Source: an uncultured bacterium (GTDB taxonomy: Bacteria; Armatimonadota; UBA5829). From it: a stretch of 64,000 nt of DNA. The stretch is taken from assembly GCA_938074205.1 (NCBI GenBank), contig CALJES010000012.1, positions 342,840-406,839 on the forward strand. The letters are read 5' to 3'. Made by a program: the position numbers and the translations under genes. The notes under the pieces were generated by a model that saw nothing but the letters and a program-made list of their open reading frames with translations, was not told where the DNA came from and did not search any database. This document shows positions 6,894 to 56,755 of this stretch, one piece after another; the stretch's first letter is position 1, and each line of letters begins with the position of its first letter.

Positions 6894-6985
6894 TGCGTTT
6901 GCCGACTGGCTTGTGTTTGGAAAAAATTATACAGTATTTTGTGCTATATCGGGTTTAGAGCCTGGCATCAGGAGGAACAATAGAC

Positions 6986-7014
6986 TTGACAGTATATGGC
7001 TCAAATCATAGTAT
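6986..7014 (+). promoter_or_regulatory. sigma70-like promoter of dnaK operon (TTGACA-17-TAGTAT) overlapped by degenerate HAIR-like inverted repeat CTTGACA-N7-GCTCAAA
   Basis: -35 6986-6991, -10 7009-7014, 17-nt spacer; inverted repeat 6985-7005 matches 10/14 of HspR HAIR consensus CTTGAGT-N7-ACTCAAG; hspR is encoded in the same operon. Confidence 0.45.
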
Positions 7015-7135
7015 AGTAATTAGTGATAACCCAGTCAGCTGGCAGGCTTTTTCGAATGCTATGAGCTGGCTGTGGAGTCCAACACACTGTAGTTTGGAAT
7101 TAGGAAGTTACATAGACCCACGGAGGTGAACAAAA

Positions 7136-8977: not shown

Positions 8978-9017
8978 CCGTTAGACTAAAACCTGATGCG
9001 AAAGGAGGAATCTAGTC

Positions 9018-9455
9018 ATGTGGACGAGATGGGATCCATTCCGAGACCTGAGTGTATTGCAAGACAGAATAAACCGGATATTCAACGAGCACTTCGGTAG
9101 GGTCGAGGGCGAAGCTCCTGGGAAAAGGCCATGGGCGCCTCTGGTCGACATGCTAGAGACGCCGACGGATCTCGTTGTTCGAGCTGAGATCCCTGGTGTC
9201 AGGCGCGAGGACATAGACGTCGAGGTGACATCTGAGTCGCTTACCATTCGAGGAGAGCGAAAATTCGACGAGGCAAACAAAGATCAGTATCTGCGGGTCG
9301 AGCGGCCGTATGGGCCGTTCCAGAGATCGTTTTCCATCGGCGTGCCTGTGCAAGCCGACAAGGTGAAAGCCAGCTACAAAGATGGCATACTAGAGATAAC
9401 TATACCGAAAGCTGAGGAAGTTACACCGAAGAAGGTCGAAATCAAGGCTGAATAG
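9018..9455 (+). CDS. Hsp20/alpha-crystallin family small heat shock protein
   Basis: 145 aa; alpha-crystallin domain (PLVDMLETPTDLVVRAEIPGV...DGILEITIPK); AAGGAGG RBS; 40 nt downstream of dnaK. Confidence 0.9.
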   Translation: MWTRWDPFRDLSVLQDRINRIFNEHFGRVEGEAPGKRPWAPLVDMLETPTDLVVRAEIPGVRREDIDVEVTSESLTIRGERKFDEANKDQYLRVERPYGPFQRSFSIGVPVQADKVKASYKDGILEITIPKAEEVTPKKVEIKAE

Positions 9456-9562
9456 CCACGAGTTTGCGCAATGGGTGGCCGGGTGCTTGGGAGGAAGATA
9501 TATCTTACGGCATCCGGCACCCAACTTCTACGTAGTGCGTTTGATAGGGTGGTATTTTAACT

Positions 9563-10510
9563 ATGCCTACCGCTTATAAGGACTATTACAAAATACTGGG
9601 CGTTGATAGAAACGCAACCGACAAGGAAATAAAAGCCGCCTTCAGGCGCCTTGCTAGAAAGTACCATCCGGATGTTAATCCGGGAGACAAATCGGCTGAG
9701 GAGAAATTCAAGGAAATCAGTGAAGCATATGAGGTGCTCTCCGACCCGGAGAAACGCCGTAAATACGACCAGTTCGGTCAGTATTGGGAACAAGTAAGCC
9801 ACCAAGGCGCCAGTGCCGGCGGCGCGCAACAGCCTGGATGGGAGACTTTCATATTCGATTTCGGCGACTTTGTGGACCCTGGTGTTAGCAGCGAGGAGGT
9901 GGGATTCGGAACTTCAGGGTTCAGCGACTTCTTTGAGATGCTCTTCGGAACCGGACGCCCGCGCGGAGGTACTACTGGCAGCACCTCTCGCGCGGGGATG
10001 CGGGGTCGAGACGTTGAGGCAGAACTAGAAATATCTTTCGACGAGGCTTTTTCGGGTGGGAAGAAGGATTTCGTGATTAATGGCCGGCGGATAGAGCTTA
10101 CGATACCGAAAGGTGTAAAAGACGGGCAAAAGCTGCGATTGGCAAAACAAGGTGAGGAAGGTCCAGGCGGTAGGGGTGACTTGATTCTTACGGTGCGGGT
10201 CCGCCCGCATCCTATCTTCGAAAGAAAAGGAGACGACCTGTACTATGAAGTGCCGGTAGATTACGTTACGGCAATTCTTGGCGGCGAAGTGCCGGTTCCA
10301 ACTCCGACGGGCCGGGTGACAATGAAAGTACCACCTGGGACTTCGAGCGGCAGAGTGTTCAGATTGCCCGGTCAAGGAATGCCCAAGCTGAACCAGAATG
10401 CTCGTGGAGACATGTACGTAAAGGTTCAAATTCGCGTTCCGGAGTTCGTTTCTAGGCGAGAGAAAGAACTTCTTGAGGAAATAAGGCGGATTCGACAAGG
10501 GGGCACGTAA
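9563..10510 (+). CDS. cbpA: J-domain co-chaperone without zinc finger (CbpA-type DnaJ)
   Basis: 315 aa; J domain DYYKILGV...HPD; G/F-rich linker; DnaJ C-terminal domains; no CxxCxGxG repeats. Confidence 0.8.
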
Positions 10511-11407: not shown

Positions 11408-13594
11408 CTACGCAGCAAGCTTGCTTCTTCTGCCGAAAAGAACGTCGTGCTCCAACATATCTCCGAGTTGCTCCGCGGGCACGGGGTATGCAATAAAGTA
11501 TCCTTGGATTTCGTCACAGCCCAATTTTCTCAGAAAATCGAGCTGTTCCATAGTCTCTACGCCTTCAGCTACCGCGCGAAGCCTCAATGAGTGAGCCATC
11601 GCGATAATTGCGCCGGTTATAGCGGCATCATTTGCATCACTGGTTATATCTTTGACGAACGACCTGTCTATCTTCACCACATCCATCGGCAGCTTTTTCA
11701 GATAGCCTAGAGACGAATAGCCGGTGCCAAAGTCGTCAATTGCTATACCTACTCCCAGATCCTTCAGTTCGCAAAGAACTCGTGCAGCTTCATCAGGAGA
11801 CTGGATCAATGTCTCCTCGGTGAGTTCCAATTCCAGAAATGAGGGATCCAACCCAGTCTCGTTCAAGATTTCTCTTACAACGCGTACGAGGTCCGATCTG
11901 TGGATGTCGTGGGCGGATATGTTTGCTGAGACTTTAATCGGTTCTTCTCGATTAACTTGCCATTTGGCAGCCTGTCGGCAGCAGTTGCTGAGGACCCACC
12001 TGCTTATAGGAATTATAATACCGGTCTCTTCGGCTAGATTTATGAATTGGGATGGATACAGAAGGCCTGATTGCGGATGTTGCCATCTGACAAGAGCTTC
12101 GGCAGCGACTATAGATCCGCTCTCGATATCTACTCGCGGTTGAAAGTGGAGCCGAAATTCATCCTTCTCAATGGCTTTTCGCAGGTCAAGTTCAAGTGTC
12201 ATTCTTCTGACAAGTTCCGTGTGCAAAGAAGGTGTATACATTCTATAGGTGTTCTTGCCAGCTTCTTTGGCTGTATACATAGCTGCATCTGCGTTTTTGA
12301 CAAGAGTTTCGACATCTGTTCCATGGTCAGGAAAAATACTTATGCCAATGCTTGCGGTTACATAGATTTCCCGATTTTCAATCAGGAAAGGTTTAGATAG
12401 TTCTACCAGGATGGCATCAGCTATTGAAATAGCTTGTTCCGCGTTCTGCAACCCTGTAAGCAGGATAGTAAATTCATCACCGCCCATGCGTGCCACAGTG
12501 CCTGTACCACCCAGTAGTGCCGAAAGACGATCAGCAACTGCTTTTATCAGCTTGTCGCCGGAGCTGTGTCCGAGGGAGTCGTTGATAAGCTTTAGCCGGT
12601 CGATGTCCAAGAACAAAACTGCGATTATAAGCCTCTCCTCGTGAGCCCGAGCTATTTCATGGTTTAGGCGATCACTAAAAACGAGCCTGTTCGGTAGACC
12701 TGTGAGATGATCTTTATAAGCGAGGCGCTTGAGCTTCTCTTGATATAGCTTGGTCTCGGTTATGTCCCGCACCATCTCGATTGCACCGGTAACGTTGCCA
12801 TCCGCATCGTAGATCGGTGAAGCCGTTGCGCAGACGTATTTTCCTTTGGGAGGCAAAAACGGTATAAATATTTCCGCCGTCAAGACACTCCCTGCCTGCC
12901 TCAAATCCCGATACTCGTATTTATCCAAGACACTCGGGTCTAAAACTGCGTTTGCCAGCACAGGTCTCCTTTCACCGTAGAAAGGAACTGCGGACTCATA
13001 AGAATTTTTACCCAGCATCTCGCAGGCAGGGATGCCGGTCAGCTCTTCAGCCGCGCGGTTCCAAGCCACAACTTTGCCCTCTTTGTCGATCACCATCACG
13101 GCGTGCGGGAGAAAGTCAATTATGTCTGCCAGCATTCTCTGGGAATTAAGGTTCGTCTTCTCAGCTTTTCTGCGAAGACCTATTTCTCGCTTGAGCCGGT
13201 CGCTTAATTTCCGTACTCTGTCTTGGACCATTTCTAGTTGATGTTGCATAGATAACAATTCGCTGGAATTGGCAACCCCCTCCGGGGGTCCACCAGACGA
13301 AAATTGAGACTTTTTGCGTCTGTGGCCGGTGCGCTGTTCGTCGGCTTTGTCGCTCGCAGTAGAAAGCAACTGTTCTCTGAGGGATTCGATGGCTCGACCG
13401 CTGTACCTACCGATTGCCCATGCGAACACAGCCATAAGACACGCAGCGAACGCTCCGACAATAAGTGCGTTATTACTGCTAGCTCGATGATTCCAAATTG
13501 CTATGAGTGTAGGAACCAAACCCGTGGCGAAAACAAGTAGCGAGAGGCGTGTTCCAAATCGTCGAGGGACTAGCCAGGCAAAAAACTTTCGCAT
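11408..13594 (-). CDS. membrane-anchored PAS-GGDEF-EAL c-di-GMP signalling protein
   Basis: 728 aa; 2 N-terminal TM helices, PAS domain, RMGGDEFTILL diguanylate cyclase motif, EALVRW...DDFGTGYSSL EAL phosphodiesterase motifs. Confidence 0.9.
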   Translation of the reverse strand: MRKFFAWLVPRRFGTRLSLLVFATGLVPTLIAIWNHRASSNNALIVGAFAACLMAVFAWAIGRYSGRAIESLREQLLSTASDKADEQRTGHRRKKSQFSSGGPPEGVANSSELLSMQHQLEMVQDRVRKLSDRLKREIGLRRKAEKTNLNSQRMLADIIDFLPHAVMVIDKEGKVVAWNRAAEELTGIPACEMLGKNSYESAVPFYGERRPVLANAVLDPSVLDKYEYRDLRQAGSVLTAEIFIPFLPPKGKYVCATASPIYDADGNVTGAIEMVRDITETKLYQEKLKRLAYKDHLTGLPNRLVFSDRLNHEIARAHEERLIIAVLFLDIDRLKLINDSLGHSSGDKLIKAVADRLSALLGGTGTVARMGGDEFTILLTGLQNAEQAISIADAILVELSKPFLIENREIYVTASIGISIFPDHGTDVETLVKNADAAMYTAKEAGKNTYRMYTPSLHTELVRRMTLELDLRKAIEKDEFRLHFQPRVDIESGSIVAAEALVRWQHPQSGLLYPSQFINLAEETGIIIPISRWVLSNCCRQAAKWQVNREEPIKVSANISAHDIHRSDLVRVVREILNETGLDPSFLELELTEETLIQSPDEAARVLCELKDLGVGIAIDDFGTGYSSLGYLKKLPMDVVKIDRSFVKDITSDANDAAITGAIIAMAHSLRLRAVAEGVETMEQLDFLRKLGCDEIQGYFIAYPVPAEQLGDMLEHDVLFGRRSKLAA

Positions 13595-15590: not shown

Positions 15591-17683
<2,093 letters not shown>

Positions 17684-17772: not shown

Positions 17773-18843
17773 TCAAGAACAGGAGTTTGCATTCGTTCGC
17801 CGCACGGGGTCGACGATAACTCCATCGAAAACTGCAGCCGATGACTTGACACTACAGTTCTGAGCTACCACGCAGCGCTCCAACATAGTGCCGCGCATAA
17901 CGCATGCACCATGCCATAGAATGCTCTGCTTAACTACGGCGCCTTCTTCCAACACGCAGTTGTCCGCCAAGACGGAGTACTCCAGCAACCGCGCGCCTTT
18001 TTCGATCCTGCAGTTATTGCCGATGACAACAGGATAGCCGATTTCTGCGCTGGGGTCAATTTCGACGTTTTCCCCCATCCACACGTACTTGCGCACTTCG
18101 GGCACTGGTATCTTGATGTCGACGCGACCGTTCATCGCATCGATATGAGCTTCGCGATACTTGCGAAGGTTGCCAACGTCTTTCCAGTAACTGGAGGTAA
18201 GGTATCCGAAAAATCTTTTTCTTTGCTCCAAGAGCATGGGGAATAGATCATTGCCGAAGCCATAGTGCACGCCCTTGGGTATCAGCTCGAATATCTCTCG
18301 GCTGAACACATAAACGCCGGTATTCGCTGAATTGGAGAATATGACTTCTCCCTTCGGTTTCTCAAGAAACCTGGTGATTCGTCCGCGCTCGTTCAAGAGA
18401 GCTATTCCGTATTCCGAGGGGTCATCAACCAGCGACAGAGCTATTGTAGCTATTGCTTTCTTTTCTTTGTGAAACTGGACCAAGCGGGTGATATCCATAT
18501 CAACCAAATCGTCGCCGCCGACAACCAGGAAAGTATCTTCGTCGAAAAAGTCTTCACATCGCTTCACACTTCCGGCATCTCCCCACAGTCGGTCCTCGGG
18601 TGAGTAGTGGATTCGTACTCCCCAGCGCTCGCCGCTGCCAAAATGGGCTTCAATCTGATCCCCAAGGTAGTGCAGGTTCACGATAATATCCTTAATCCCG
18701 TTCCTGGCGAGCATCTCGACTATATGCTCCATGACGGGCTTGTTAACTATAGGAACCATGGGCTTAGGGATATTCCTGGTGAGCGGGTCTAATCTCGATC
18801 CAACACCGGCGGCCAATATCATCGCTTTCATAGTGTGTCGCAC
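17773..18843 (-). CDS. sugar-1-phosphate nucleotidyltransferase (mannose-1-P guanylyl / glucose-1-P thymidylyl transferase-like) with C-terminal left-handed beta-helix
   Basis: 356 aa; MKAMILAAGVGSRLDPLTRNIPKPMVPI NTP-transferase motif; hexapeptide repeats at C-terminus. Confidence 0.85.
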   Translation of the reverse strand: MRHTMKAMILAAGVGSRLDPLTRNIPKPMVPIVNKPVMEHIVEMLARNGIKDIIVNLHYLGDQIEAHFGSGERWGVRIHYSPEDRLWGDAGSVKRCEDFFDEDTFLVVGGDDLVDMDITRLVQFHKEKKAIATIALSLVDDPSEYGIALLNERGRITRFLEKPKGEVIFSNSANTGVYVFSREIFELIPKGVHYGFGNDLFPMLLEQRKRFFGYLTSSYWKDVGNLRKYREAHIDAMNGRVDIKIPVPEVRKYVWMGENVEIDPSAEIGYPVVIGNNCRIEKGARLLEYSVLADNCVLEEGAVVKQSILWHGACVMRGTMLERCVVAQNCSVKSSAAVFDGVIVDPVRRTNANSCS

Positions 18844-18866: not shown

Positions 18867-19979
18867 CTAGCTGCTCAACTCTTGCACACACTTCCTCACT
18901 GCTTCGACGACTTGCTCTCGTTGCGAGCTGGTAAGCTCAGGGAAGACAGGCAAACTGAGCACTTCCTTGGCTGCCCTTTCGGCCTCGGGAAAGTCTCCTT
19001 CTTTGTATCCCAGTTGGGCATAGGCCTTTTGTACGTGTAATGGGCTGGGGTAAAACACCGCAGATCCGATATCCATTTCAGCAAGTTTTGCTTTAAGTTC
19101 GTCGCGCTTCGGAAAACGGATCGTGAATTGGTGATACGTGTGGTAATTGTCGGAATTTGCCACCGGAAGCTGTAGAGGTAGATCCCTTAGCGCCTCTAAG
19201 TAGTACGTCGCATTTGCAATACGTGCAGCATTCCAGGACTCGAGATACTTCAGCTTCACACGTAGTATTGCCGCTTGTATCTCGTCCAATCTGCTGCAAT
19301 AGCCAACGTATTGGTACGAATAAGCTGAATCCTGACCGTGGAAGCGCAGTGACTTCGCACGTGCGCACAACTCGGGGTCATTTGTTAGTACCATACCTCC
19401 GTCTCCGCATGCGCCGAGGTTTTTCGTCGGATAAAAGCTCAAGGTCACCGCGTCTCCAAAAGCACCTATGCCCTTGCCTTTGTGCTTTGAGCCTATGGCC
19501 TGTGCACCGTCTGCGATTAGCTTCAGGCCGTACCTTTTCGCCACTTGTTCCAGGCGTTCTACCTGAGCGCACTGCCCATAAAGGTGCACGGGCAGAATAG
19601 CTTTCGTGCGTTCCGTTATCGCTTGTTCTACAAGGTCGGCATTAAGGTTGAAGTCTCGGGGATCTATGTCCACATAAACAGGCTTTGCACCAACAATCAT
19701 TATCGCTTCTGTAGTAGCGACGAACGTGAACGGCGTGGTAATGACTTCGTCTCCCGGTCCGACTCCCGCTGCTGCCAGTGCAATAACTATTGCGTCCGTA
19801 CCTGAGTTCACTGCAACTCCGAACCGCGAATTACAAACGGCGGGTACTTCCTCTTCCAAAGCGCTGACGTTCGGTCCCAGAATAAATTGTCCGCTTTCAA
19901 GAACTGAATCGATCGCGGATGCAATCTCATCCCTGAGCGCATCAGTCTGCGCTTTGGGATTTGCCATAGGAACAACCAA
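18867..19979 (-). CDS. DegT/DnrJ/EryC1/StrS family PLP-dependent sugar aminotransferase
   Basis: 370 aa; characteristic N-terminal and PLP-lysine region (SFYPTKNLGACGDGG). Confidence 0.9.
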   Translation of the reverse strand: MVVPMANPKAQTDALRDEIASAIDSVLESGQFILGPNVSALEEEVPAVCNSRFGVAVNSGTDAIVIALAAAGVGPGDEVITTPFTFVATTEAIMIVGAKPVYVDIDPRDFNLNADLVEQAITERTKAILPVHLYGQCAQVERLEQVAKRYGLKLIADGAQAIGSKHKGKGIGAFGDAVTLSFYPTKNLGACGDGGMVLTNDPELCARAKSLRFHGQDSAYSYQYVGYCSRLDEIQAAILRVKLKYLESWNAARIANATYYLEALRDLPLQLPVANSDNYHTYHQFTIRFPKRDELKAKLAEMDIGSAVFYPSPLHVQKAYAQLGYKEGDFPEAERAAKEVLSLPVFPELTSSQREQVVEAVRKCVQELSS

Positions 19980-26923: not shown

Positions 26924-27826
26924 ATGAGTGAAGACCTAATCAAAAAGATAAGAGAGCTAAAGAAAAAACGCGAAGCCATAATACTTGCCCACAACTATCA
27001 GCTGCCTGAAGTGCAAGAAATCGCCGATATCACGGGAGATTCACTTGAGCTTTCGCGTGCAGCGGCTCGAACAGAAGCCAAGGTAATAGTTTTCTGCGGC
27101 GTCCATTTTATGGCGGAAACCGCAAAGGTGCTGAGCTCTGCAAAGACCGTTCTGCTGCCTGACGAACAAGCAGGTTGTCCTATGGCGGATATGATCACAC
27201 GGGAACAGCTTCTGGAATTCAAGTCCGCTCATCCGGGAATTCCTGTCGTTGCCTATGTGAATACCTCGGCGGAAGTCAAAGCTGAAAGCGATATCTGCTG
27301 CACTTCTGCAAATGCCGTGCGCGTGGTGGAATCTCTGGAATCCAGAGAAATACTGTTCGTGCCGGACAAGTCGCTCGCCGCCTATGTGGCTTCAAAGACG
27401 AGTAAGACGATAATACCCTACTGCGGGTATTGTCCTACCCACCACCGAATACTTGCCAGCGACGTTCTTCGAGCAAAGAGGGAACATCCCGAAGCATTGG
27501 TAATTGCGCATCCTGAGTGCACTATGGATGTTATTTCCCTTGCCGACGCTGTGGAAAGCACGTCGGGCATGCTGAGATTTGTGGCTGCAAGCCAGGCGAA
27601 AGAGTTCATAATCTGCACCGAGAGAGGACTGCTCTACAGACTCAAAAAGGAAAATCCGAACAAGGTCTTCTACAATCCGAGTCCGGTGAACGTGTGTCCC
27701 AATATGAAAAAGATAAACCTGGAGAAGATCCTTTGGAGTTTGGAGGATATGCAGCCTGCGATCGAATTACCAGAAGACGTGATCACTCGTGCTCGCTGCG
27801 CTATAGAAAGGATGATAGCGCTATGA
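26924..27826 (+). CDS. nadA: quinolinate synthase
   Basis: 300 aa; three-repeat NadA fold with conserved Cys ligands and ILAHNYQ motif. Confidence 0.93.
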   Translation: MSEDLIKKIRELKKKREAIILAHNYQLPEVQEIADITGDSLELSRAAARTEAKVIVFCGVHFMAETAKVLSSAKTVLLPDEQAGCPMADMITREQLLEFKSAHPGIPVVAYVNTSAEVKAESDICCTSANAVRVVESLESREILFVPDKSLAAYVASKTSKTIIPYCGYCPTHHRILASDVLRAKREHPEALVIAHPECTMDVISLADAVESTSGMLRFVAASQAKEFIICTERGLLYRLKKENPNKVFYNPSPVNVCPNMKKINLEKILWSLEDMQPAIELPEDVITRARCAIERMIAL

Positions 27827-28659
27827 CGCGGTTGGAGCTGCTTGCGGTGGAACCAATAGTAAGGCGAGCTCTTGAAGAGGATTTGGGTAATGGGGACATA
27901 ACCACTGCTCTGACTGTCCCCAGATCAGCTCGTGCGGATGCTAGGATTGTGTCCAAGGCCGCGGGCGTACTTGCAGGAATCGACGTTGCACGCATGGTGT
28001 TCACAATGCTCGACTCGCGCCTGACATTTGAGCCGCATCTTGAGGACGGCGCAAGATTTGAGCGGGGCACGGTTATCGCCAATGTGGTTGGCAACGCTGC
28101 TGAGATTCTCAGCGGAGAAAGGGTGGCGCTGAATTTCCTACAGCGTATGTGCGGAATAGCGACGCTAACATCCGAGTATGTAGCCCGGGTTTCTCACACG
28201 AAAGCGAAAATTATTGATACTAGAAAAACGGTGCCAGGTTTGCGCTGTCTCGACAAGTACTCAGTCAGAGTCGGGGGCGGATATAACCACAGGTGTGGGT
28301 TGTATGACGGAATACTCATCAAAGACAACCATATTACCGTTGCGGGAGGCATTGCGTCTGCCGTGCGTGCGGCAAAGAGCAAAGCGCCCCACACGTTGTT
28401 GGTTGAGGTAGAAGTCAGGAACCTTGACGAGCTCAAAGAAGCGATTGAGTCGGGAGCCGACTCCGTATTGCTCGATAATATGAGCATTGAAATGTTGAGC
28501 AAGGCGGTGCAATTAGCTGACGGAAGGGTCATTCTGGAAGCTTCCGGAGGAATAACTTTGGAAAACGTTGCGGCGATTGCTGAAACAGGGGTCGATCTTA
28601 TATCAGTGGGTGCGTTGACTCACAGCGCTCCCGCCATTGACATCAGCATGGAGTTTTGA
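27823..28659 (+). CDS. nadC: nicotinate-nucleotide pyrophosphorylase (carboxylating)
   Basis: ~278 aa from ATG overlapping nadA stop (ATGA); QPRTase N- and C-terminal domains (ILIKDNHI, LLDNM motifs). Confidence 0.9.
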   Translation: MTRLELLAVEPIVRRALEEDLGNGDITTALTVPRSARADARIVSKAAGVLAGIDVARMVFTMLDSRLTFEPHLEDGARFERGTVIANVVGNAAEILSGERVALNFLQRMCGIATLTSEYVARVSHTKAKIIDTRKTVPGLRCLDKYSVRVGGGYNHRCGLYDGILIKDNHITVAGGIASAVRAAKSKAPHTLLVEVEVRNLDELKEAIESGADSVLLDNMSIEMLSKAVQLADGRVILEASGGITLENVAAIAETGVDLISVGALTHSAPAIDISMEF

Positions 28660-37386: not shown

Positions 37387-39111
37387 ATGCGGATTGTATA
37401 CTGCTTTCTGGTTGCTTTGACGGTACTTTCTCTTCTGGCACCCAGCCAGGCGATACTTGCGCAGTGCGACCCTGACTGGGCACGCGATCTATTTGCTACG
37501 GAGGGACTAGGCGGTACCACTTATGCTTATGCCAACTCGCTTTGTGTCTTTCGCGACCAAATGTACGTGGGGGGCACGTTTCTGGCGGCAGGAAATCTGT
37601 CTGTGAATTACATCGCCAGGTGGAACGGTTCGTCCTGGCAAGGAGTGGGTTCAGGAGTAAACGGATACGTGCAAGCTATGTGCGAGTATGATGGCGAGTT
37701 GTACGTGGGCGGGCATTTTACATCTGCGGGCGGTATAGAAGCCAACTTCATTGCAAAATGGGATGGTCAGAACTGGTCTCCTGTAGGTGTCGGCACGGAC
37801 GGGCCAGTTCTTGCTCTTTGTGTATACAATGGTGAGCTTTACGCAGGCGGTGCCTTCACGGCAGCAGGAGGAATTCCGGCGCTTCACATAGCAAAGTGGA
37901 ACGGCTCGTCATGGAACGCTGTCGGTAGTGGCCTTGATGGGGGAGCCTTTCCTTACGTGTTCGCGCTTTGCGTTTACAACGGAGAGCTGTATGCTGGAGG
38001 CGGATTCCAACGCGCAGGTAACGTGAACGTACCTTACGTAGCCAGGTGGAACGGTGAAGAGTGGCGAGCGCTCACATCCGGTGTGAACAACTTCGTCCAG
38101 AGCCTTTGCGTCTTCGATGGCAAGCTCTGTGCGGGCGGTGACTTTACCCTAGCCGGAGGCATGCCGGCCGCCAGAATCGCTTGCTGGGACGGTTCCTCGT
38201 GGCAATCGTTGGGCTCTGGCATGAACCAGTCTGTGCGAGCTTTGCTTGAGTTTGATGGTAAGCTCTATGCGGCAGGCGCATTCACCACAGCAGGTGGCGT
38301 ACAAGCAAGCAGGATAGCCGTATGGGATGGCAGCTCTTGGCAGTCGTTGGGCAATGGTATTGGTGGCGAATATCCCGTCGTCTATGCGTTGTGTGATTAC
38401 ACCGACGGAATAGGGCCTGGTAAAGCCCTGTATGTCGGCGGTTATTTTTCAAGCGCTGGTGGGTACGACTCGCTCTGCATAGCTCGTTGGGGTTGTGAAA
38501 GTGCTGTGATGACCATTCCGGAAGCAAAACTAAGCTTTGACAACCGACTTGTGACCCTAACGGGCGTTGTTTCAACCATGGCTGACCAACCAGTTTTCTA
38601 CGTGTCTGAGGTTACCGAAGGCATTCAAGTTTCCGGCATAAGGGTGGAGATGGAGGACAACAACCTGACCGCTGGACAGCGGGTGAACCTCATAGGGCGA
38701 CTCGCGACGAATTCTAATGGTGAACGATACATACGAGCATGGTCAGCCCAAGCGATAGAGCCGGCGACCGCAAGACCATTTTACCTGGTGGCGAAGAACT
38801 TGGGCGGTGGGCCATTTGGCTTCGCGGGTGGAGCCGGACAGGAAGGTGTTACAGGCGGAGTTGGATTGAACAACATTGGGCTTTTGGTGAAAGTATTCGG
38901 GCGGTTCACCTATGTGGACAGCAATACGTTTTTGCTCGATGACGGAAGTGCCCAGGTTAAGTGCGCAGTGACACCTGACATAACTATAGATCCATCCTGG
39001 CAGTACGTCGTGGTAACGGGCATCGTTTCATGCATACGAGACCAACAAGGGATCCATCCACAGTTGATCGTAAGCTCGGTCGAAGACATTTCTGCCTTGG
39101 ATCAGCGCTAG
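37387..39111 (+). CDS. secreted protein with ~7 tandem ~48-aa repeats (probable beta-propeller) and conserved C-terminal domain
   Basis: 574 aa; signal peptide; repeats of consensus LYxGGxFTxAGGxxAxxIAxWNGSSWxxxGSGxxGxVxALCxYxGE; C-terminal ~110 aa similar to C-terminus of the BNR protein at 53231-56755. Confidence 0.75.
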   Translation: MRIVYCFLVALTVLSLLAPSQAILAQCDPDWARDLFATEGLGGTTYAYANSLCVFRDQMYVGGTFLAAGNLSVNYIARWNGSSWQGVGSGVNGYVQAMCEYDGELYVGGHFTSAGGIEANFIAKWDGQNWSPVGVGTDGPVLALCVYNGELYAGGAFTAAGGIPALHIAKWNGSSWNAVGSGLDGGAFPYVFALCVYNGELYAGGGFQRAGNVNVPYVARWNGEEWRALTSGVNNFVQSLCVFDGKLCAGGDFTLAGGMPAARIACWDGSSWQSLGSGMNQSVRALLEFDGKLYAAGAFTTAGGVQASRIAVWDGSSWQSLGNGIGGEYPVVYALCDYTDGIGPGKALYVGGYFSSAGGYDSLCIARWGCESAVMTIPEAKLSFDNRLVTLTGVVSTMADQPVFYVSEVTEGIQVSGIRVEMEDNNLTAGQRVNLIGRLATNSNGERYIRAWSAQAIEPATARPFYLVAKNLGGGPFGFAGGAGQEGVTGGVGLNNIGLLVKVFGRFTYVDSNTFLLDDGSAQVKCAVTPDITIDPSWQYVVVTGIVSCIRDQQGIHPQLIVSSVEDISALDQR

Positions 39112-39143: not shown

Positions 39144-40862
39144 TCAGTATTGGTCCTCTTCTAAGAATACCTTACGGCGGGCTTCATCTAACGTGGTGAC
39201 ACCAGCCAGAACTTTCTCGACCGCCGATTCACGCAGCGTTTTCATTCCGGAACGAATGGCAAGCTCGCGAACTTGATTCGCCGTGGGCATTTGTAGTGTT
39301 AGGCGTCTTATCTCTTCGGTAACACGCATGAGCTCTACGACTGCGGTGCGGCCAATAAAACCACCGCTGCAGTGTCCGCATCCGACAGCTTTGTAAAGCG
39401 TGACACCAGTGCGCTGCTCCGAAAATCCTAACACGGCCAGCTCGTCCGGGGTTGCCTCGTAAGCGACTTTGCAGCGAGGACACAATGTGCGCACCAGTCT
39501 TTGTGCGATTATCCCGATGACTGAAGAGCCTATTAGGAATGGTTCCACACCCATATCTGTAAGGCGCGTGATTGCAGAAGCTGCGTCATTGCAGTGAAGT
39601 GTTGAGAAAACAAGGTGCCCAGTCATTGCCGCCTGGAACGCGATTGTGGCGGTCTCTCTGTCCCTTATTTCGCCTACGAATATGACGTCAGGGTCCTGCC
39701 TAAGTATTGCTCGCAATTGAATGGGAAACGTAAGCCCAGTCTTTACATTAACTGCCGACTGGTTTATTCCATCCAATTCGTATTCTATTGGGTCTTCGAC
39801 AGTCATTATGTTAATTTCCGGCGATCGGATGCTGTCCAATGCGGAATATAGTGTGGTTGTCTTTCCACTACCCGTTGGTCCCGTAACCAAAATGATACCG
39901 TGAGGCCGCTTGATCAGGTACTTGAACGACTCTAGATCATCTGCGCTGAAGCCTAGTCTTTCAAGCGACAAGAGCACTCCCGATTTGTCAAGTATTCGCA
40001 CTACTACACGTTCGCCGTGCTGAACTGGCAGTGTGGAGATTCTAAGGTCGATATTTTTGTTGTTCAATTTTACGCTTATCCTGCCGTCTTGGGGAATGCG
40101 CTTCTCTGCTATGTCAAGGTCTGCCATGACCTTGATTCTGCTAACTACCGCGCCTTGCAGGTTTTTGGGTATATCGCGGACGTGCTGCAAAACTCCGTCA
40201 ACGCGATATCGAACCTCCATTCGGTCTGCCCTAGGTTCGAAATGGATATCGCTCGCGCGCTGCCTTATAGCCTCCTGAAGAACCAGGTTCACCGCTTTGA
40301 TGACGGGTGCCTCTTCGCTCTTACGCCGCTCCTCAGATATGTCCGGTGAGAGTTCCGGCTGATCTATCTCTACAGAAATTCCTTCGGAAGCTTGTTCTAT
40401 CGAGGTAGTTATGTCATCGGCAGTTGCAGCGCCGTACAAACGATCTATCAAGGTCTCTATCTGCGACCGGCTTGCCAGCAAAGGTTCTACTCGACGTTTG
40501 GAGACCCGCGTGACAGCGTCCATAGCTTCAACATCCATGGGATCAGCAGTAGCTATTGCGATGCGGTCTTCCGTCGCGTAGATGGGGACGACAGTATATG
40601 TGCGGGCAATACCCTCCGGAACCAATCGAACGACGTAGTCCGGAACTCTGATGTCGGCCAGGTCGACGGAGGGCATTTCCATCTGCAGTGCCCGTGCTTC
40701 TACGATATCTTCTTCAGAAACAAGGCCTGATTCGAGCAGTATCTCGCCCAATCTCTTGTAATTGAATTTCTGCTGTTCGAGCGCCCAATCCAACTGCTTT
40801 TCGGTTATTACACCAGCAGCAACTAGAACGTCGCCCAGCCGTGTCCTAAGCTGCGACTGCAT
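39144..40862 (-). CDS. type II secretion / type IV pilus assembly ATPase (GspE/PilB family)
   Basis: 572 aa; N-terminal GSPII_E_N domain, Walker A GPTGSGKTTT, Asp/His boxes, C-terminal CPRC...CGHC zinc motif. Confidence 0.9.
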   Translation of the reverse strand: MQSQLRTRLGDVLVAAGVITEKQLDWALEQQKFNYKRLGEILLESGLVSEEDIVEARALQMEMPSVDLADIRVPDYVVRLVPEGIARTYTVVPIYATEDRIAIATADPMDVEAMDAVTRVSKRRVEPLLASRSQIETLIDRLYGAATADDITTSIEQASEGISVEIDQPELSPDISEERRKSEEAPVIKAVNLVLQEAIRQRASDIHFEPRADRMEVRYRVDGVLQHVRDIPKNLQGAVVSRIKVMADLDIAEKRIPQDGRISVKLNNKNIDLRISTLPVQHGERVVVRILDKSGVLLSLERLGFSADDLESFKYLIKRPHGIILVTGPTGSGKTTTLYSALDSIRSPEINIMTVEDPIEYELDGINQSAVNVKTGLTFPIQLRAILRQDPDVIFVGEIRDRETATIAFQAAMTGHLVFSTLHCNDAASAITRLTDMGVEPFLIGSSVIGIIAQRLVRTLCPRCKVAYEATPDELAVLGFSEQRTGVTLYKAVGCGHCSGGFIGRTAVVELMRVTEEIRRLTLQMPTANQVRELAIRSGMKTLRESAVEKVLAGVTTLDEARRKVFLEEDQY

Positions 40863-41502
40863 TAGAAGTTCCCTCCACTATCTCGCTAATGCGCTCCGCT
40901 ATTCTCCACAGCGGCAAAATTTCCTGTACCAGACCTGCCTCGATAGCGGCCGAAGGCAAGCCGTGTACAACGCTAGTGGCTTGGTCTTGAGCAATAGTTA
41001 CTCCACCCGCCTCGTGAATTGCCCGCATGCCCTCGCGGCCGTCGGTCCCGACACCGGTCAATAAGACACCCACCGTACGCTTTCCGAAGACTTCCGCTGC
41101 GGAAGTCATAAGCTCGTCGATTCTGTTCCTTGGCGGTTCTGTGCTGCCACTTGCGTATTCTATATTGATACAATAGGCGGGAGTAGGCGCAAAACCGACT
41201 CTAGCTACGCTGACTTTCGCAGTTAAAGGGCATACCAGGATCCTAGAAGCGAGGAGCGCCTGACCATCCTCCGGTTCGAAAACCGGTAATCTGCATAACT
41301 TTTGTAGGTGTTTAACCAGCACTCGCGTGAAACCAGGTCTCATGTGCTGAGCCACAAGTATCGTCGCGGGAATAGTAACTGAAAACTGCGGAAGAATCTG
41401 CGACAAGGCTTGTGGCCCGCCGGCTGTTGCGCCAAATACGACAACCCAATCCGGTGCTTTCTGATTCAATCTTTGACCTGCTGAGTCATTTGTGTTCGCC
41501 AT
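40846..41502 (-). CDS. standalone CheB-type methylesterase domain protein (no receiver domain)
   Basis: 218 aa; aligns to CheB catalytic domain (GATAGG~GASTGG, AQHMRPGFT, LTGVGTDG, IAQDQATSVVHGLP); putative nucleophile Ser appears replaced by Thr; 17-nt overlap with gspE/pilB start. Confidence 0.7.
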   Translation of the reverse strand: MANTNDSAGQRLNQKAPDWVVVFGATAGGPQALSQILPQFSVTIPATILVAQHMRPGFTRVLVKHLQKLCRLPVFEPEDGQALLASRILVCPLTAKVSVARVGFAPTPAYCINIEYASGSTEPPRNRIDELMTSAAEVFGKRTVGVLLTGVGTDGREGMRAIHEAGGVTIAQDQATSVVHGLPSAAIEAGLVQEILPLWRIAERISEIVEGTSNAVAA

Positions 41503-41526: not shown

Positions 41527-42360
41527 CTACTGAGGCTCAACAGAAATCGAGCGGCCGTCAGTAACCATTTTGACTATGCCGTCGTTGTCAGTTCTGTACA
41601 CCCTCGCACCGGTATTATTCGCATCTATCCGTTCGAGGATAGAGCGACCGGGCTTCTTGTGCCCCCTGTTGACAAGCAACACAAAATACTTTGGTTTCGC
41701 CGCGACAATCAGCTCCAACGAAGTAGTTGAATACCGACCGTTTCGCCCTATAACCAAGATATCAGTGCTAACGTCCTGCCCAGATCGAATTAGGTAACCC
41801 TCATCTTCGATACCAGCGTCCGACATCAGCAAAAATCGACTTCTTCGATATTGCAAACGCGTTATCAACGGCCTTTCATCAGCATCGACCGCATCTCGCG
41901 GAGGCGACAACGCAGTAAGCCTAAGCTCGCCACCGAGTCGAAAGGAGTCTCCTCCAAATAGGAGCACCTCCGCAATGCTGCCACCAGGTCCGTGAATAGA
42001 TTCGGCCCATGGTGTGCCGGTGTGTATAACGCGGCGCACTTCGAAAGCCTCGAAAAGCCGCCGCAGAGTCTCTAAAATGGTTCCGTTGCCACGCGTTATT
42101 AGAACGTCGATCGACGAAATGTCGTTATACCGAAGATACTCTACAAGGGCATCGGCAGTATTTGGAGCGCCTGGGTCGATGACAAGTGCGCGTCCATCTG
42201 GCATCTTGAAAACTGTAGCGTTGCCAAAGTCCGCAGTTAGGAAACTTGCTATTACAACGGGACCTGCGGGTCTAGATACTCTCTTGCCCTGCCGGTTCAA
42301 AAGGAAAAACGCACCTGACGACAGGACTACTATGATGATTATCGGCAAGAGCTTACGCAT
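41527..42360 (-). CDS. membrane-anchored metallo-beta-lactamase-fold-like protein with degenerate metal-binding motif
   Basis: 277 aa; N-terminal signal anchor; ALVIDPG...IDVLITRGNGT resembles MBL/ComEC-C fold but lacks HxHxDH. Confidence 0.4.
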   Translation of the reverse strand: MRKLLPIIIIVVLSSGAFFLLNRQGKRVSRPAGPVVIASFLTADFGNATVFKMPDGRALVIDPGAPNTADALVEYLRYNDISSIDVLITRGNGTILETLRRLFEAFEVRRVIHTGTPWAESIHGPGGSIAEVLLFGGDSFRLGGELRLTALSPPRDAVDADERPLITRLQYRRSRFLLMSDAGIEDEGYLIRSGQDVSTDILVIGRNGRYSTTSLELIVAAKPKYFVLLVNRGHKKPGRSILERIDANNTGARVYRTDNDGIVKMVTDGRSISVEPQ

Positions 42361-53230: not shown

Positions 53231-56200
53231 CTATTGTCCGATGAACTGCAGAGTATCAATCTCTGCTCCAGCATAGCCAGTGCGCATCAGCATCATTCTG
53301 ATACGACCGGAACCTGAGATATACCTATTGCAGCAAATACCCTGCACAACCACTTGTTTTCCTATGTCCTCGGGTGAGCGCGGGAACGCTGAAATTGCAT
53401 CCCAGGCTCTTATTACTTTGATGCCCTTATATCCATCGGGTCCGCCCTCGCAAGGAACGCCGCTGCCGTCGTCTACATAACACCACATCCAGCCTTTCGA
53501 AACGTCCTCACCGTATCCAAGCACCTTACCTGTTACTCTAATCAGCAGACCCTCAGTGTTGAGACCGGTCGCAACCACCGGATTATTGCCGACCCAGGCT
53601 CCGATTACGGCTGGCGTGCCATCACCAGGTCCGGGATTGGCGACGTTAGAACGCCAACCACCGCCGTAGGATTTCACGTTCATACAGATGAACGGCGGCA
53701 AATCAGTGTATCCGCCGAGTGTCGGCATCGAATCCAACCTCAACTCACGAGTAAGGTCAATCACTGGGTCAGTGCTGGAGGTCGGCAGCACCAGGGTGCC
53801 ACTCATTCTGGTTATTGTGGCGCCGGCAGTCATCCCGGGCGGGAAGTAGTTCCCGAGGGCCTTCGCGTTGACCTTTAAACCTGCGGCACCCAGCCCGCCA
53901 TCTGGCGTCAATTGCTCAACCCAGAACCACTTCTCCGCATTCGAGCCATACAAATCACCCGGATCGACATACGTCACGATACACGGATTCTCGTAGTTCT
54001 CGAATATGACTGAGGTGTCTTTACAGGCTTTGATCTCGCCTATCGTAGAGTACTTGAACAAGATTTTTATACCGTCGCTGACTCCTGCTTCGCTCCAAAT
54101 GCCTGCACCGTTCTTGGCCTTAACCAAGACATAGTAGGTGCCGAGTTTCAAGTTCAACCCCGTGAACGTATACTCTGTGACGTTGCCCACCGAGCGCCAG
54201 TCTGCAACGTAGTCGCGACCTATGTCCATTGGCACGCCGCTTATCGCGCAAGCATACTCGACCACTCCACTCTCAGGATCAGAAGCAGCAGTCCAAGTGA
54301 CGTGCATAGTGGTCATACTATTCTGCTCATCTCCGTCGTCGAACACCACCGGTATGCTAGGCGGCGTAACGTCCCCTGCCGTTGGCACGACTACGCCGTA
54401 GGACTTAGTCGTTGACGAGTTGGGACCGTCCGGAGGCGAGTAAACTCTCAGGATCTCGAGGTTGTTGTCTATGGCGTAGAGGTTGCCGACAGCGTCAAAA
54501 GCGGCGTCACGCCAGGTAGAGAAGATAGTCTTTCCCTGCTCGTAGACGTCGCGGGTGAATACGCTCTTAAGTGCAGTGGTAACTCCAGTTGTCTGCTCCG
54601 TCCAGGTTGCGCCGCCGTCCCTGCTGACGTAGGCTTTTCCATTAGGCCCGACTGCCCAACCAAGTGCCGGGTCGACAAACTTAGCACAATTAAGTGCCGG
54701 TGCTCCCGACGAAACGATAGTCCACGTGGCACCGCCGTCTTTCGTCTTAGCAACCGTTCCGTCTTCCGCAACCACTTTAGCAACCAGACTTGTCACCACG
54801 GATACGCTCTTGAGCTTCTTGCCTGCCAGCTCAGGGACAACTTGAGGTACCCAAGTAGCTCCGCTGTCGGTGGTGCGCAGTATAGTGCCATTGTCGCCCA
54901 CTGCCCAGCCATATTCCTGAACAGAAGGTAGGTGCCGATGCCTTGCTACGCCTATTGAATAAAGGTTTGCGGTCGTGCCAGAGTTCAAGAGAGACCAAGA
55001 TGTACCAGAGTTGACGCTTTTCAGTATGACACCACCGTTACCGCAGACATACAGTACCTGTTGACCAGTGGTTGCTGAGCCGAAGGGTTGATCTATCCAG
55101 TTAAGATCCTGCGTGGTGCCGGAGCTTGCTGCGGACCAGGTAGCACCGCTGTCTGCCGACACGTATATTGCACCGCCCGCACCAACTGCCCACACGTAGT
55201 ATGTATAGACAACCGGGCTTCCGGATGAGGACATAAAAGCTCTCACGCATTTTAGGTCCTGCGAACCGGGCGTGCTAGGGATGGTCCAGGTGGCGCCGCC
55301 GTCTGTAGTTCTTAGGAATGTGCCTGCGTTACCTACGGCGTAGCCGACAGTGGATGAGCGCATGAAGATGTCGTTTAGGTCGTTGGTTGTTGGGGACGTC
55401 ACATTTATCCACGTCCGACCTCGATCAGCAGATCGCAGGATCGTCCCGCCGGAGCCCACTGCCCAAACTCCGACGGGGGAAATAACTTGCATGCGTTCTA
55501 GGTCGAAATCTTTGTCGGTGACAATCAGTCGGCCGTTGTTATACGTGCATACAGCCACTCTGTTGCGGGCATCGTCAAGCGCCAAACCATATGTGTTACG
55601 GAGCACGTCCTGGCCGCCCCAGTCTGTAAGTGATAGGAACAACAGTGTCTGGTCCTGAGCCACTTTTATGACGCTCGAAATGTCAGTTCCGTCCGCTCTG
55701 TTTTGGCTAATGTACCAGTTACCCTCAGAATCCTTGGCGAAGTCTTGGTAGGTGTTTTGCATTATGTTGACAGGATAGTTGTCATTGTACGGAATGGCAT
55801 CGGGCTTTCCCCACCAAGGCAGCTGACTGTTTCCAACGTTGTACTGCCACACGCTGCCTCTTTGAGCAACGTTGCCGGGATAGTCCTCGTCGAGCGTGTA
55901 GATCACTCTATCCGGACCGACGCCTTCGACGATCGCGCCGAGTATATTACCGTGGTTCGACGTAAGACCAGTACTGTCAGCACCGGCCGGGTCAAAAATC
56001 GACTGCGCGCTGAGAAAATCAGGGTCGCCAACCCAAAGCCCCGGGTGTGAATCGTGATTATCACACACATATAGGCAGTCGTCCGGGCCTACGGTGCATC
56101 GCCAGGGACTATATGAGCTTAGTACCCACGTAACACCGCCCGTTCGTGCATGGTCGCCCTGCCCGACAGCATCGGTGCCGTCGGCGTTGAGAATATAGAT

Positions 56201-56755
56201 TCCATCTTCGGTTACCTTCGGCGAGCCGCTCCACTGGTTCGCTCCTGATGGGTACGCTTCCGAAACGTAGATTCGGCCGTAGTACTTGCTGCGCGGGTCC
56301 TTGTTTACATCGACACCACGCGGGCTGTAGTACTTGCACCGGTCTGTGACAGTCTCATCGATGATCGGAGTCCACTCAGAGTAACCATCGTCCGAGGCAG
56401 TCACAGTGAAGTAATACGGTTCGCCAAGGGGCACGAGAGCGCCGGCATCATTCTTGCCATCCCACACCCAGGTTTGTGTTCCCCTAGTTAGTGGTCCAAG
56501 ATTGACCGTGCGCACGAGCTGGTCACCAGCAGCACGATAAATTTTCAAGACGACGCCGTTGTCCGCGTTCTCGTTCAGAATGAATGACAGCGTTACCGTG
56601 CCGCCAGACGCTGGGGCGAAGGCAGGTGCGCTTGCCTCAAGCTTAGTGGCGTAGACATTTGCGAGGATCTCCGCGGGGAGGCTCATCACCAGTGCGAGGC
56701 ATAACACAAGTACCGGGCGGATCTTAGCACTTCCATTGCCGGAACATCCCCTCAT
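53231..56755 (-). CDS. large secreted protein with fibronectin type III-like domain, seven BNR/Asp-box repeats (beta-propeller) and conserved C-terminal domain
   Basis: 1174 aa; signal peptide; repeats xSxDxGxTW (SADRGRTW, TTDGGATW, SADSGATW, SVNSGTSW, TTDSGATW, TKDGGATW, SRDGGATW); FN3-like VTWTAASDPESGVVEY; C-terminus similar to that of the 37387-39111 protein. Confidence 0.8.
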   Translation of the reverse strand: MRGCSGNGSAKIRPVLVLCLALVMSLPAEILANVYATKLEASAPAFAPASGGTVTLSFILNENADNGVVLKIYRAAGDQLVRTVNLGPLTRGTQTWVWDGKNDAGALVPLGEPYYFTVTASDDGYSEWTPIIDETVTDRCKYYSPRGVDVNKDPRSKYYGRIYVSEAYPSGANQWSGSPKVTEDGIYILNADGTDAVGQGDHARTGGVTWVLSSYSPWRCTVGPDDCLYVCDNHDSHPGLWVGDPDFLSAQSIFDPAGADSTGLTSNHGNILGAIVEGVGPDRVIYTLDEDYPGNVAQRGSVWQYNVGNSQLPWWGKPDAIPYNDNYPVNIMQNTYQDFAKDSEGNWYISQNRADGTDISSVIKVAQDQTLLFLSLTDWGGQDVLRNTYGLALDDARNRVAVCTYNNGRLIVTDKDFDLERMQVISPVGVWAVGSGGTILRSADRGRTWINVTSPTTNDLNDIFMRSSTVGYAVGNAGTFLRTTDGGATWTIPSTPGSQDLKCVRAFMSSSGSPVVYTYYVWAVGAGGAIYVSADSGATWSAASSGTTQDLNWIDQPFGSATTGQQVLYVCGNGGVILKSVNSGTSWSLLNSGTTANLYSIGVARHRHLPSVQEYGWAVGDNGTILRTTDSGATWVPQVVPELAGKKLKSVSVVTSLVAKVVAEDGTVAKTKDGGATWTIVSSGAPALNCAKFVDPALGWAVGPNGKAYVSRDGGATWTEQTTGVTTALKSVFTRDVYEQGKTIFSTWRDAAFDAVGNLYAIDNNLEILRVYSPPDGPNSSTTKSYGVVVPTAGDVTPPSIPVVFDDGDEQNSMTTMHVTWTAASDPESGVVEYACAISGVPMDIGRDYVADWRSVGNVTEYTFTGLNLKLGTYYVLVKAKNGAGIWSEAGVSDGIKILFKYSTIGEIKACKDTSVIFENYENPCIVTYVDPGDLYGSNAEKWFWVEQLTPDGGLGAAGLKVNAKALGNYFPPGMTAGATITRMSGTLVLPTSSTDPVIDLTRELRLDSMPTLGGYTDLPPFICMNVKSYGGGWRSNVANPGPGDGTPAVIGAWVGNNPVVATGLNTEGLLIRVTGKVLGYGEDVSKGWMWCYVDDGSGVPCEGGPDGYKGIKVIRAWDAISAFPRSPEDIGKQVVVQGICCNRYISGSGRIRMMLMRTGYAGAEIDTLQFIGQ

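Follow-up and report, generated by a model that had tools for sequence, protein, structure and literature searches.

A C-terminal module of two predicted OB barrels carried by diverse exported proteins of uncultured Armatimonadota

Exported bacterial proteins with otherwise unrelated architectures may carry a common module that sorts them or holds them at the cell envelope. The C-terminal domain (CTD) of the type IX secretion system (T9SS) of Bacteroidota (Por_Secre_tail, PF18962/TIGR04183) is a globular domain of about 100 aa that has an Ig-like beta-sandwich fold and lacks a transmembrane segment; numerous unrelated signal-peptide proteins of one phylum carry it at their C-terminus. The tripartite signals of the sortase (LPXTG), exosortase (PEP-CTERM) and rhombosortase (GlyGly-CTERM) systems consist of a motif, a hydrophobic transmembrane helix and a basic tail. 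SLH, CWB2, LysM and choline-binding repeats are promiscuous modules that can stand at either protein end, are often repeated, occur in many paralogues per genome and are proposed to hold their passengers on an envelope polymer. Here we describe a domain common to the C-termini of two exported proteins, A and B, encoded in a stretch of 64,000 nucleotides (the window) from an uncultured bacterium of the Armatimonadota (lineage UBA5829; assembly GCA_938074205.1, contig CALJES010000012.1, positions 342,840 to 406,839).

The fold predicted for this domain, the oligonucleotide/oligosaccharide-binding (OB) fold, is itself known from several settings. The BOF family (PF04076; YgiW/YdeI/VisP) consists of small periplasmic proteins of Proteobacteria, each a single domain standing alone, that form five-stranded OB barrels, and a passage in PMC5636140, citing Moreira et al. 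2013, reports peptidoglycan binding by the BOF protein VisP/YgiW. HIN-200, RPA and CST proteins use two consecutive OB barrels as one unit, and are basic, intracellular and nucleic-acid-binding. An N-terminal OB domain is also present on an extracellular protein of the endonuclease/exonuclease/phosphatase family (PDB 9sf8/9sf9).

The unit described here comprises two domains, OB1 and OB2, over about 200 aa. It defines a large family that has no Pfam or NCBIfam model and has so far been found only in Armatimonadota. Judged against Pfam, NCBIfam and the literature that we searched, the OB fold and the existence of promiscuous tail modules are known; what is new is the family itself, with its tandem-OB architecture and its occurrence in Armatimonadota only. 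Our literature searches retrieved no paper with the OB2 motif, and nothing relevant on surface anchoring in Armatimonadota.

The C-terminal domain common to proteins A and B

The organization of the two proteins is given in Table 1. In protein A, the signal peptide was recognized by eye from a hydrophobic core, FLVALTVLSLLA, followed by an A-x-A-like site. The propeller is matched by Pfam DUF5122 (E 1e-17) and Rax2 (E 5e-9), and is followed by a tail of about 210 aa which ends in ...SSVEDISALDQR. An exact-sequence look-up of protein A returned no record. Protein B is matched by PSII_BNR (E 6.5e-22) and FlgD_ig (E 2e-13), and also by Sortilin-Vps10 and BNR, and ends in ...EIDTLQFIGQ. The first-pass annotation of this DNA had aligned the two C-termini by eye and proposed a shared domain, located in gene A at 38780-39111, which corresponds to residues 465-574 of the protein.

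When the two tails were compared directly by BLASTP, no significant similarity was found (E = 0.17, 27% identity over 84 columns). The Smith-Waterman score was 53, compared with 31.5 +/- 5.4 for shuffled sequences, and was equalled in 4 of 2000 shuffles. Because the pairwise BLASTP comparison was not significant, we moved to profile methods. A search of a protein collection with the tail of A yielded 13 relatives with differing N-terminal domains (DUF5122, RCC1, FN3), one of which was labelled as coming from an Armatimonadota metagenome-assembled genome (MAG). A hidden Markov model (HMM) was built from 14 tails of the protein A type and run against all 850 six-frame open reading frames (ORFs) of the window; besides A itself, only the tail of B was matched (E 2e-6, 23 bits). 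Alignment of the A-type profile with B and its closest relative by hhalign gave a probability of 96.4% (E 1.4e-9) over 93 columns, representing the whole domain, and with a four-sequence B-type profile the probability was 97.0% (E 8e-11). The columns aligned by the profiles are the same as those picked out by eye: KNLGGG/KSYGGG, GLNNIGLLVKVFG/GLNTEGLLIRVTG, LLDDGS/YVDDGS and VVVTGI/VVVQGI. The AlphaFold2 model for B, made from a shallow alignment, is poor overall (pLDDT 45), and its shared-domain part (pLDDT 55-80) contains five strands in the same order as in A. Glycine, valine and isoleucine are abundant in both tails, and this composition, together with the BLASTP value, could be taken to mean that the tails resemble each other by chance and share no domain. 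Given that the A-type HMM singled out B among all the ORFs, that the profiles align from one end of the domain to the other and that the strand pattern is identical in the two models, we regard the probability of this explanation as negligible. The tails of A and B are thus homologous as judged by profile comparison, and the alignment made by eye, which pairwise BLASTP alone did not support, stands.

The unit common to A and B consists of the glycine-rich linker and OB2. Protein A scores 150 bits against the family HMM and contains every family motif. Protein B retains YGGG, GLNTEGLL, DDGS and QGICC, and lacks GQxG and a detectable OB1: the region upstream of its tail, which shows an OB1-like pattern in a MAFFT alignment (Table 1), was detected neither by the OB1 HMM nor by hhalign, and AlphaFold2 confidence there is below 40. 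The B-type variant is common only to protein B, the family proteins P0014 and P0160, and one ORF of genome locus L048. A word-indexed homology search with the B tail, alone or as a two-sequence profile, found two relatives only, so the B type is rare. A near-invariant glutamine (in GQxG) and a near-invariant cysteine (in TGISSC), the latter often unpaired, are present in the A-type domain; in the B type neither is conserved at the corresponding position.

Counterparts of both genes are found in a related Armatimonadota MAG. Gene order at its locus L001 (JARYME010000015.1) follows that of the window, with neighbouring genes mostly 65-92% identical and an ortholog of A that is 74% identical; the window is thus a stretch of Armatimonadota chromosome. 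The same MAG contains a homologue of protein B with 39% identity, at 6037-9729 of locus L048.

Predicted fold and distribution of the family

The tail of A (210 residues) was modelled with AlphaFold2 from 12 sequences, yielding two five-stranded beta-barrels with a pLDDT of 88.4 and a predicted template modelling score (pTM) of 0.84. The strands of OB1 are at residues 24-36, 39-46, 49-57, 67-77 and 83-95 of the tail model, with pLDDT above 90, and those of OB2 at residues 136-145, 150-154, 159-164, 176-188 and 191-203. Foldseek searches of the PDB with this model returned OB folds only: RMI2, RPA14, Ten1, YgiW (1nnx, TMt 0.66), ExoVII and the tandem-OB HIN-200. The scores were modest (E about 3e-4, TM 0.45-0.66), with a probability of 1.0 for RPA14, RMI2, Ten1 and YgiW. 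A viral structure library likewise gave generic OB folds only, and a profile sequence search of the PDB gave nothing better than E 0.017. On the evidence of the predicted model, the tail of A is a member of the OB-fold superfamily containing two barrels.

Among described OB proteins, the BOF family is like OB1 in forming extracytoplasmic five-stranded barrels. The OB1 domain of A scores 15.3 bits against Pfam BOF (E 0.022), below the gathering threshold of 25.8 bits, and reaches E 0.014 with the NCBIfam YgiW/YdeI model, also below the cut-off, whereas OB1 of a relative (L062, 8822-11914) scores 29.4 bits and passes the Pfam threshold. Unlike the stand-alone BOF proteins, OB1 is fused to a distinct OB2 and to large passengers, and the domain common to A and B is OB2, which is never matched by the BOF models. 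The best PDB sequence match of OB1 is to the extracellular OB domain of 9sf8/9sf9 (E 0.018), likewise on an exported protein, but this match is marginal, covers about 55 residues of OB1 and is uninformative on OB2. HIN-200 aligns with the module over about 220 columns, but the structures superpose poorly (TM 0.36-0.41, rmsd about 7 Å). The module also differs from HIN-200, RPA and CST in being exported and acidic, with a median isoelectric point of 5.4 for OB2 and 4.8 for OB1. On account of this acidity, DNA binding in the manner of classical OB folds was considered and rejected.

These structural matches bear on one possible function, protein-protein docking or oligomerization, in which OB-OB packing of the kind seen in RPA, RMI and CST would attach the module to a common scaffold or surface layer. 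The best matches are indeed OB cores that mediate hetero-oligomerization (RMI1-RMI2, the RPA trimerization core and Stn1-Ten1), the confident inter-domain geometry points to OB-OB packing inside the module, and the module is acidic. Against this, Foldseek gave weak matches of a kind generic to OB folds, no candidate gene for a scaffold is conserved nearby, and the C-terminal helix of RPA-type trimerization is missing from the model. We therefore consider docking improbable.

The first-pass annotation had described an upstream partial duplicate of the shared unit in A (LVTLTGVVS...). This segment is OB1, a separate domain of the same fold. The similarity between OB1 and OB2 is weak (hhalign probability 67%, E 5e-5; score equalled in 20 of 2000 shuffles), so that the two may derive from an ancient duplication, but not from a recent partial one.

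To determine the size of the family, 1.84 billion representative proteins were searched exhaustively with HMMER. The number of protein clusters identified was 3,428 with a limit of E<=1e-3 and 2,026 with one of E<=1e-10. One genome of each species was also scanned, by pattern seeding with a six-sequence alignment as the query, and the module was located at 79 loci in 27 MAGs. A phylum was recorded for 52 of these loci and was in every case Armatimonadota/Armatimonadetes, and no other phylum was represented. All genomes found with the module are uncultured MAGs. A single MAG may contain up to 13 or more domain-bearing ORFs, counted within the sampled stretches. Genes carrying the module are often side by side, and tandem arrays of paralogues are present at loci L074, L040, L058, L059 and L022; at L074 (2158-15208), three paralogues of about 1067 aa lie within 13 kb.

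The consensus of 293 distinct OB2 copies is PLgM.NrsLGGG....GQ.GVtGG.GLNNIGLLVRTwGrVT....F.IDDGSG..VkC.......YV.VTGISSC......RLlRVR. The motifs of the family are P-x4-N-x-x-LGGG, GQxG, GLNNIGLLV, DDGS and VTGISSC, usually with OB1 and its DGERYI motif upstream. In proteins A and B, OB2 lies outside every match to a Pfam or NCBIfam model, and the same was found with Pfam in 66 relatives. Conservation is highest at DGERY, which in OB1 lies in the loop between strands 4 and 5, and at DDGS, which in OB2 occupies the beta2-beta3 turn. These are the loops with which OB folds usually contact their ligands.

The module is combined with a wide variety of partners. In the 66 relatives examined with Pfam we found 115 families, mainly beta-helix/NosD, SBBP, PD40, RCC1, DUF5122, Ig, FN3 and LRR; classical carbohydrate-active enzymes are few. 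The first-pass annotation saw unrelated N-terminal architectures in A and B, and many more are found in these relatives. Many of the proteins have N-termini that look by eye like signal peptides. OB1 is upstream of OB2 in 244 of 259 testable copies, and a few OB2 domains directly follow an Ig or FN3 domain. The last copy of the domain ends within 20 aa of the C-terminus in 133 of 159 family proteins and is further from it in the other 26; among the 121 ORFs of the genome loci that end in a true stop codon, the domain is terminal in 89 and non-terminal in 32. The terminal share is thus 73-84% across samples. FGE-sulfatase, GH3, FKBP, Big_1 plus beta-helix, or FN3 domains are found downstream of the non-terminal modules, and some copies are near the N-terminus, preceding FGE-sulfatase, GH3 or FKBP domains. 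About 21 of the 159 proteins have two or three copies, spaced about 200 aa apart; P0016 has three, and no Pfam match. Short proteins that appeared to consist of the module only were set aside as fragments or products of doubtful start codons.

Envelope retention and other possible functions

The reading that we prefer, and hold tentatively as somewhat short of an even chance, is that the tail is a retained, non-covalent binding or anchoring module for a glycan of the envelope or matrix. By analogy with SLH, CWB2 and LysM, a mobile extracytoplasmic module would ride on Sec-exported proteins with very different passengers and, once folded, would remain part of the mature protein. It would then bind non-covalently to a common extracytoplasmic ligand, most likely a glycan that the cell itself carries in its envelope or matrix (peptidoglycan or a different envelope glycopolymer), and binding through the OB fold would retain or concentrate the diverse proteins at the cell surface or in the periplasm. 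We favour a binding module because tandem repeats and placement at either protein end are typical of SLH, CWB2, LysM and carbohydrate-binding modules (CBMs), because the most conserved residues, DGERY and DDGS, are in the loops through which OB folds usually bind ligands, and because a BOF protein, VisP, is reported to bind peptidoglycan. The module differs from SLH, CWB2, LysM and choline-binding repeats in having an unrelated fold and sequence and in being seen only in uncultured Armatimonadota MAGs.

Several observations weigh against this reading. The C-terminal bias is stronger than would be expected for a freely mobile binding domain, and would fit a terminal signal as well. The match of OB1 of A to BOF, the family that includes VisP, is below threshold. 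Comparison of A with its ortholog at L001 (8594-10330) gives identities of 82% in the propeller, 69% in OB1 and 54% in OB2; the faster divergence of OB2 than of its passenger (54% versus 82%) shows that few of its positions are constrained.

The strong terminal bias raises the question of a sorting tag. The first-pass annotation had suggested a candidate sorting or anchoring module with no obvious resemblance to the known tags, and in the latter respect it was correct. Neither A nor B matched PF18962/TIGR04183 at E<=1 with Pfam and NCBIfam, nor did either match the SLH, CWB2, LysM or CBM models of Pfam, and all of these are outside the 25 most frequent Pfam families of the 66 relatives. The module has none of the parts of a tripartite signal. 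In 219 proteins whose copy is terminal, hydrophobic runs within the last 40 aa reach at most six residues (median three), and neither a transmembrane segment nor a basic tail was found.

As a C-terminal secretion or sorting signal in the manner of the T9SS CTD, the domain would be recognized by a dedicated Armatimonadota translocon or sortase-like enzyme, which would move the cargo over the outer membrane and cleave or attach it. Like the T9SS CTD, the domain is terminal in most proteins and is carried by diverse, signal-peptide-bearing passengers in a single phylum; its conserved LGGG/glycine-rich linker could be a processing site, and a T2SSE-type ATPase gene adjoins gene A. In contrast to the T9SS CTD, the domain is neither strictly terminal nor single-copy: it is internal or near the N-terminus in 16-26% of cases, with enzyme domains downstream, and two or three copies may be present in one protein, as in P0016. 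Its predicted fold is an OB barrel rather than an Ig-like sandwich, and no T9SS or other sorting model matches it. Nor did the window ORFs scanned or the genome loci show a sign of dedicated machinery. All-against-all clustering of the ORFs at the 79 loci revealed no conserved neighbour gene, the commonest neighbours being a prepilin-type (DUF1559-like) gene, at eight loci, and regulators. The sortase or exosortase-like partner that the first-pass annotation had in mind was not found: a scan of 32 window ORFs revealed no gene for a sortase, exosortase or rhombosortase, and none was seen as a conserved neighbour at the 79 loci; no T9SS component (PorU, PorV, SprA and others) was found among those 32 ORFs. 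The ATPase gene is convergent with A, and this order recurs elsewhere only in a closely related, syntenic genome. Taken together, these results make a T9SS-like signal quite unlikely, although it retains some weight because of the strong C-terminal bias and the conserved glycine-rich linker. Of the two roles first suggested for the domain, anchoring or binding is plausible, and a strict C-terminal sorting or secretion tag is not supported, in view of its internal, N-proximal and repeated copies, the missing tripartite anchor and linked machinery, and its fold. Internal copies in other proteins, which the first-pass annotation had itself named as grounds for refutation, are present in a sizeable minority.

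A more specific form of the same idea is that OB1-OB2 serves as the address label of a secretion-attachment pathway specific to Armatimonadota, in which a putative machine would recognize dozens of cargoes, take them over the outer membrane and attach them to the surface, and might process them at the LGGG linker. We consider this doubtful, at a low probability. If it were true, OB1-OB2 would be equivalent in function to the T9SS CTD, with an unrelated fold and in an unrelated phylum. The near-invariant glutamine of GQxG and cysteine of SSC in the A-type domain might conceivably have a role in covalent chemistry.

The nature of the passengers bears on a further alternative, namely that the tail acts like a CBM, binding plant or microbial polysaccharide in the environment and so targeting the protein to a substrate rather than retaining it on the cell's own envelope. 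OB folds do bind oligosaccharides, tandem repeats are common in CBMs, and the partners include some enzymes and some beta-helices resembling lyases (GH3, FGE-sulfatase, Beta_helix/NosD and Disaggr_assoc). Most passengers, however, consist of repeats with no catalytic function (propellers, Ig, FN3, LRR and RCC1). The 25 partner families seen most often in the 66 members include none of the glycoside hydrolases, and no CBM model matches. Substrate targeting of this kind therefore appears unlikely, and retention on an envelope or matrix glycan is the reading that we continue to prefer.

Genomic setting and implications

The features of the two genes and of the immediate neighbours of A are collected in Table 1. 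Genes A and B are surrounded by housekeeping genes, and the T2SSE-type ATPase is the only secretion-related neighbour of A. The order A, ATPase, CheB recurs in L001.

Table 1. Positions in the window of genes A and B, their domains and the neighbours of gene A
Feature	Position	Strand	Description	Basis
Gene A	37387..39111	+	574-aa exported protein: signal peptide, DUF5122/Rax2-type propeller, OB1, C-terminal OB2	ORF list, translation, Pfam
Predicted Sec signal peptide of A	37387..37461	+	Residues 1-25, ending ...AILA, followed by QC	Inferred by eye from sequence
Beta-propeller passenger of A	37474..38481	+	Residues ~30-365, repeats of ~48-50 aa	Pfam DUF5122, Rax2
OB1 of A	38488..38751	+	Residues ~368-455, predicted five-stranded barrel, invariant DGERYI motif, weakly BOF/YgiW-like	AlphaFold2, Pfam/NCBIfam
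Shared C-terminal domain of A	38773..39108	+	Residues 463-574: conserved Gly-rich linker (PxxxxKNLGGG...GQxGVxGGxGLNNIG), then predicted OB2 barrel (DDGS, VKC, TGIVSC)	Family alignments, AlphaFold2, profile search
T2SSE/PilB-type secretion ATPase	39144-40862	-	MshEN (cyclic di-GMP-binding type) N-domain; convergent with A, 32 nt past its stop	
CheB methylesterase	40846-41502	-	ORF overlaps that of the T2SSE/PilB-type ATPase	
B-type copy of shared domain	53234..53689	-	Residues ~1023-1174, divergent, insertions between strands	HMM, hhalign, AlphaFold2
Region upstream of B tail	53726..54067	-	Residues ~897-1010, OB1-like pattern (FWVEQ...GLKV...RELRL), unconfirmed	MAFFT alignment with OB1
Gene B	53231..56755	-	1174-aa exported protein: signal peptide, FlgD_ig-like domain, BNR/Ycf48-type propeller, FN3-like region, divergent C-terminal domain copy	Translation, Pfam

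Genes of an envelope-glycopolymer pathway are scattered along the minus strand of the window (4668-6893, 15591-16421, 17773-18843 and 18867-19979), the set consisting of a PAP2 and PMT_2 fusion, a WecG/TagA-family glycosyltransferase, a sugar nucleotidyltransferase and a DegT-type aminotransferase. It is possible that the polymer made by these products is a source of a ligand for the module.

Other observations concern the remainder of the window. A PAS-GGDEF-EAL protein of cyclic di-GMP turnover is encoded at 11408-13594 on the minus strand, in the same window as the MshEN-bearing ATPase. Two minus-strand ORFs of 277 and 293 aa, at 41527-42360 and 2992-3873, have no Pfam match, and the first is 66% identical in L001. 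The ORFs listed for NadA (26924-27826) and quinolinate phosphoribosyltransferase (27517-28659), both on the plus strand, overlap by about 310 nt; the true start of the latter is probably further downstream, because Pfam matches it from residue 127 onward.

Soils, groundwater and anaerobic digesters commonly harbour Armatimonadota. The module provides a practical marker with which the likely surface or periplasmic proteome of this poorly known phylum can be listed from sequence alone, and its tandem OB unit of about 200 aa is a defined target for binding and structural work. If the module proved to be a secretion signal, it would be a pointer to a new export pathway; if its ligand is an envelope polymer, a member of the OB-fold superfamily would join the short list of bacterial wall-anchoring modules.

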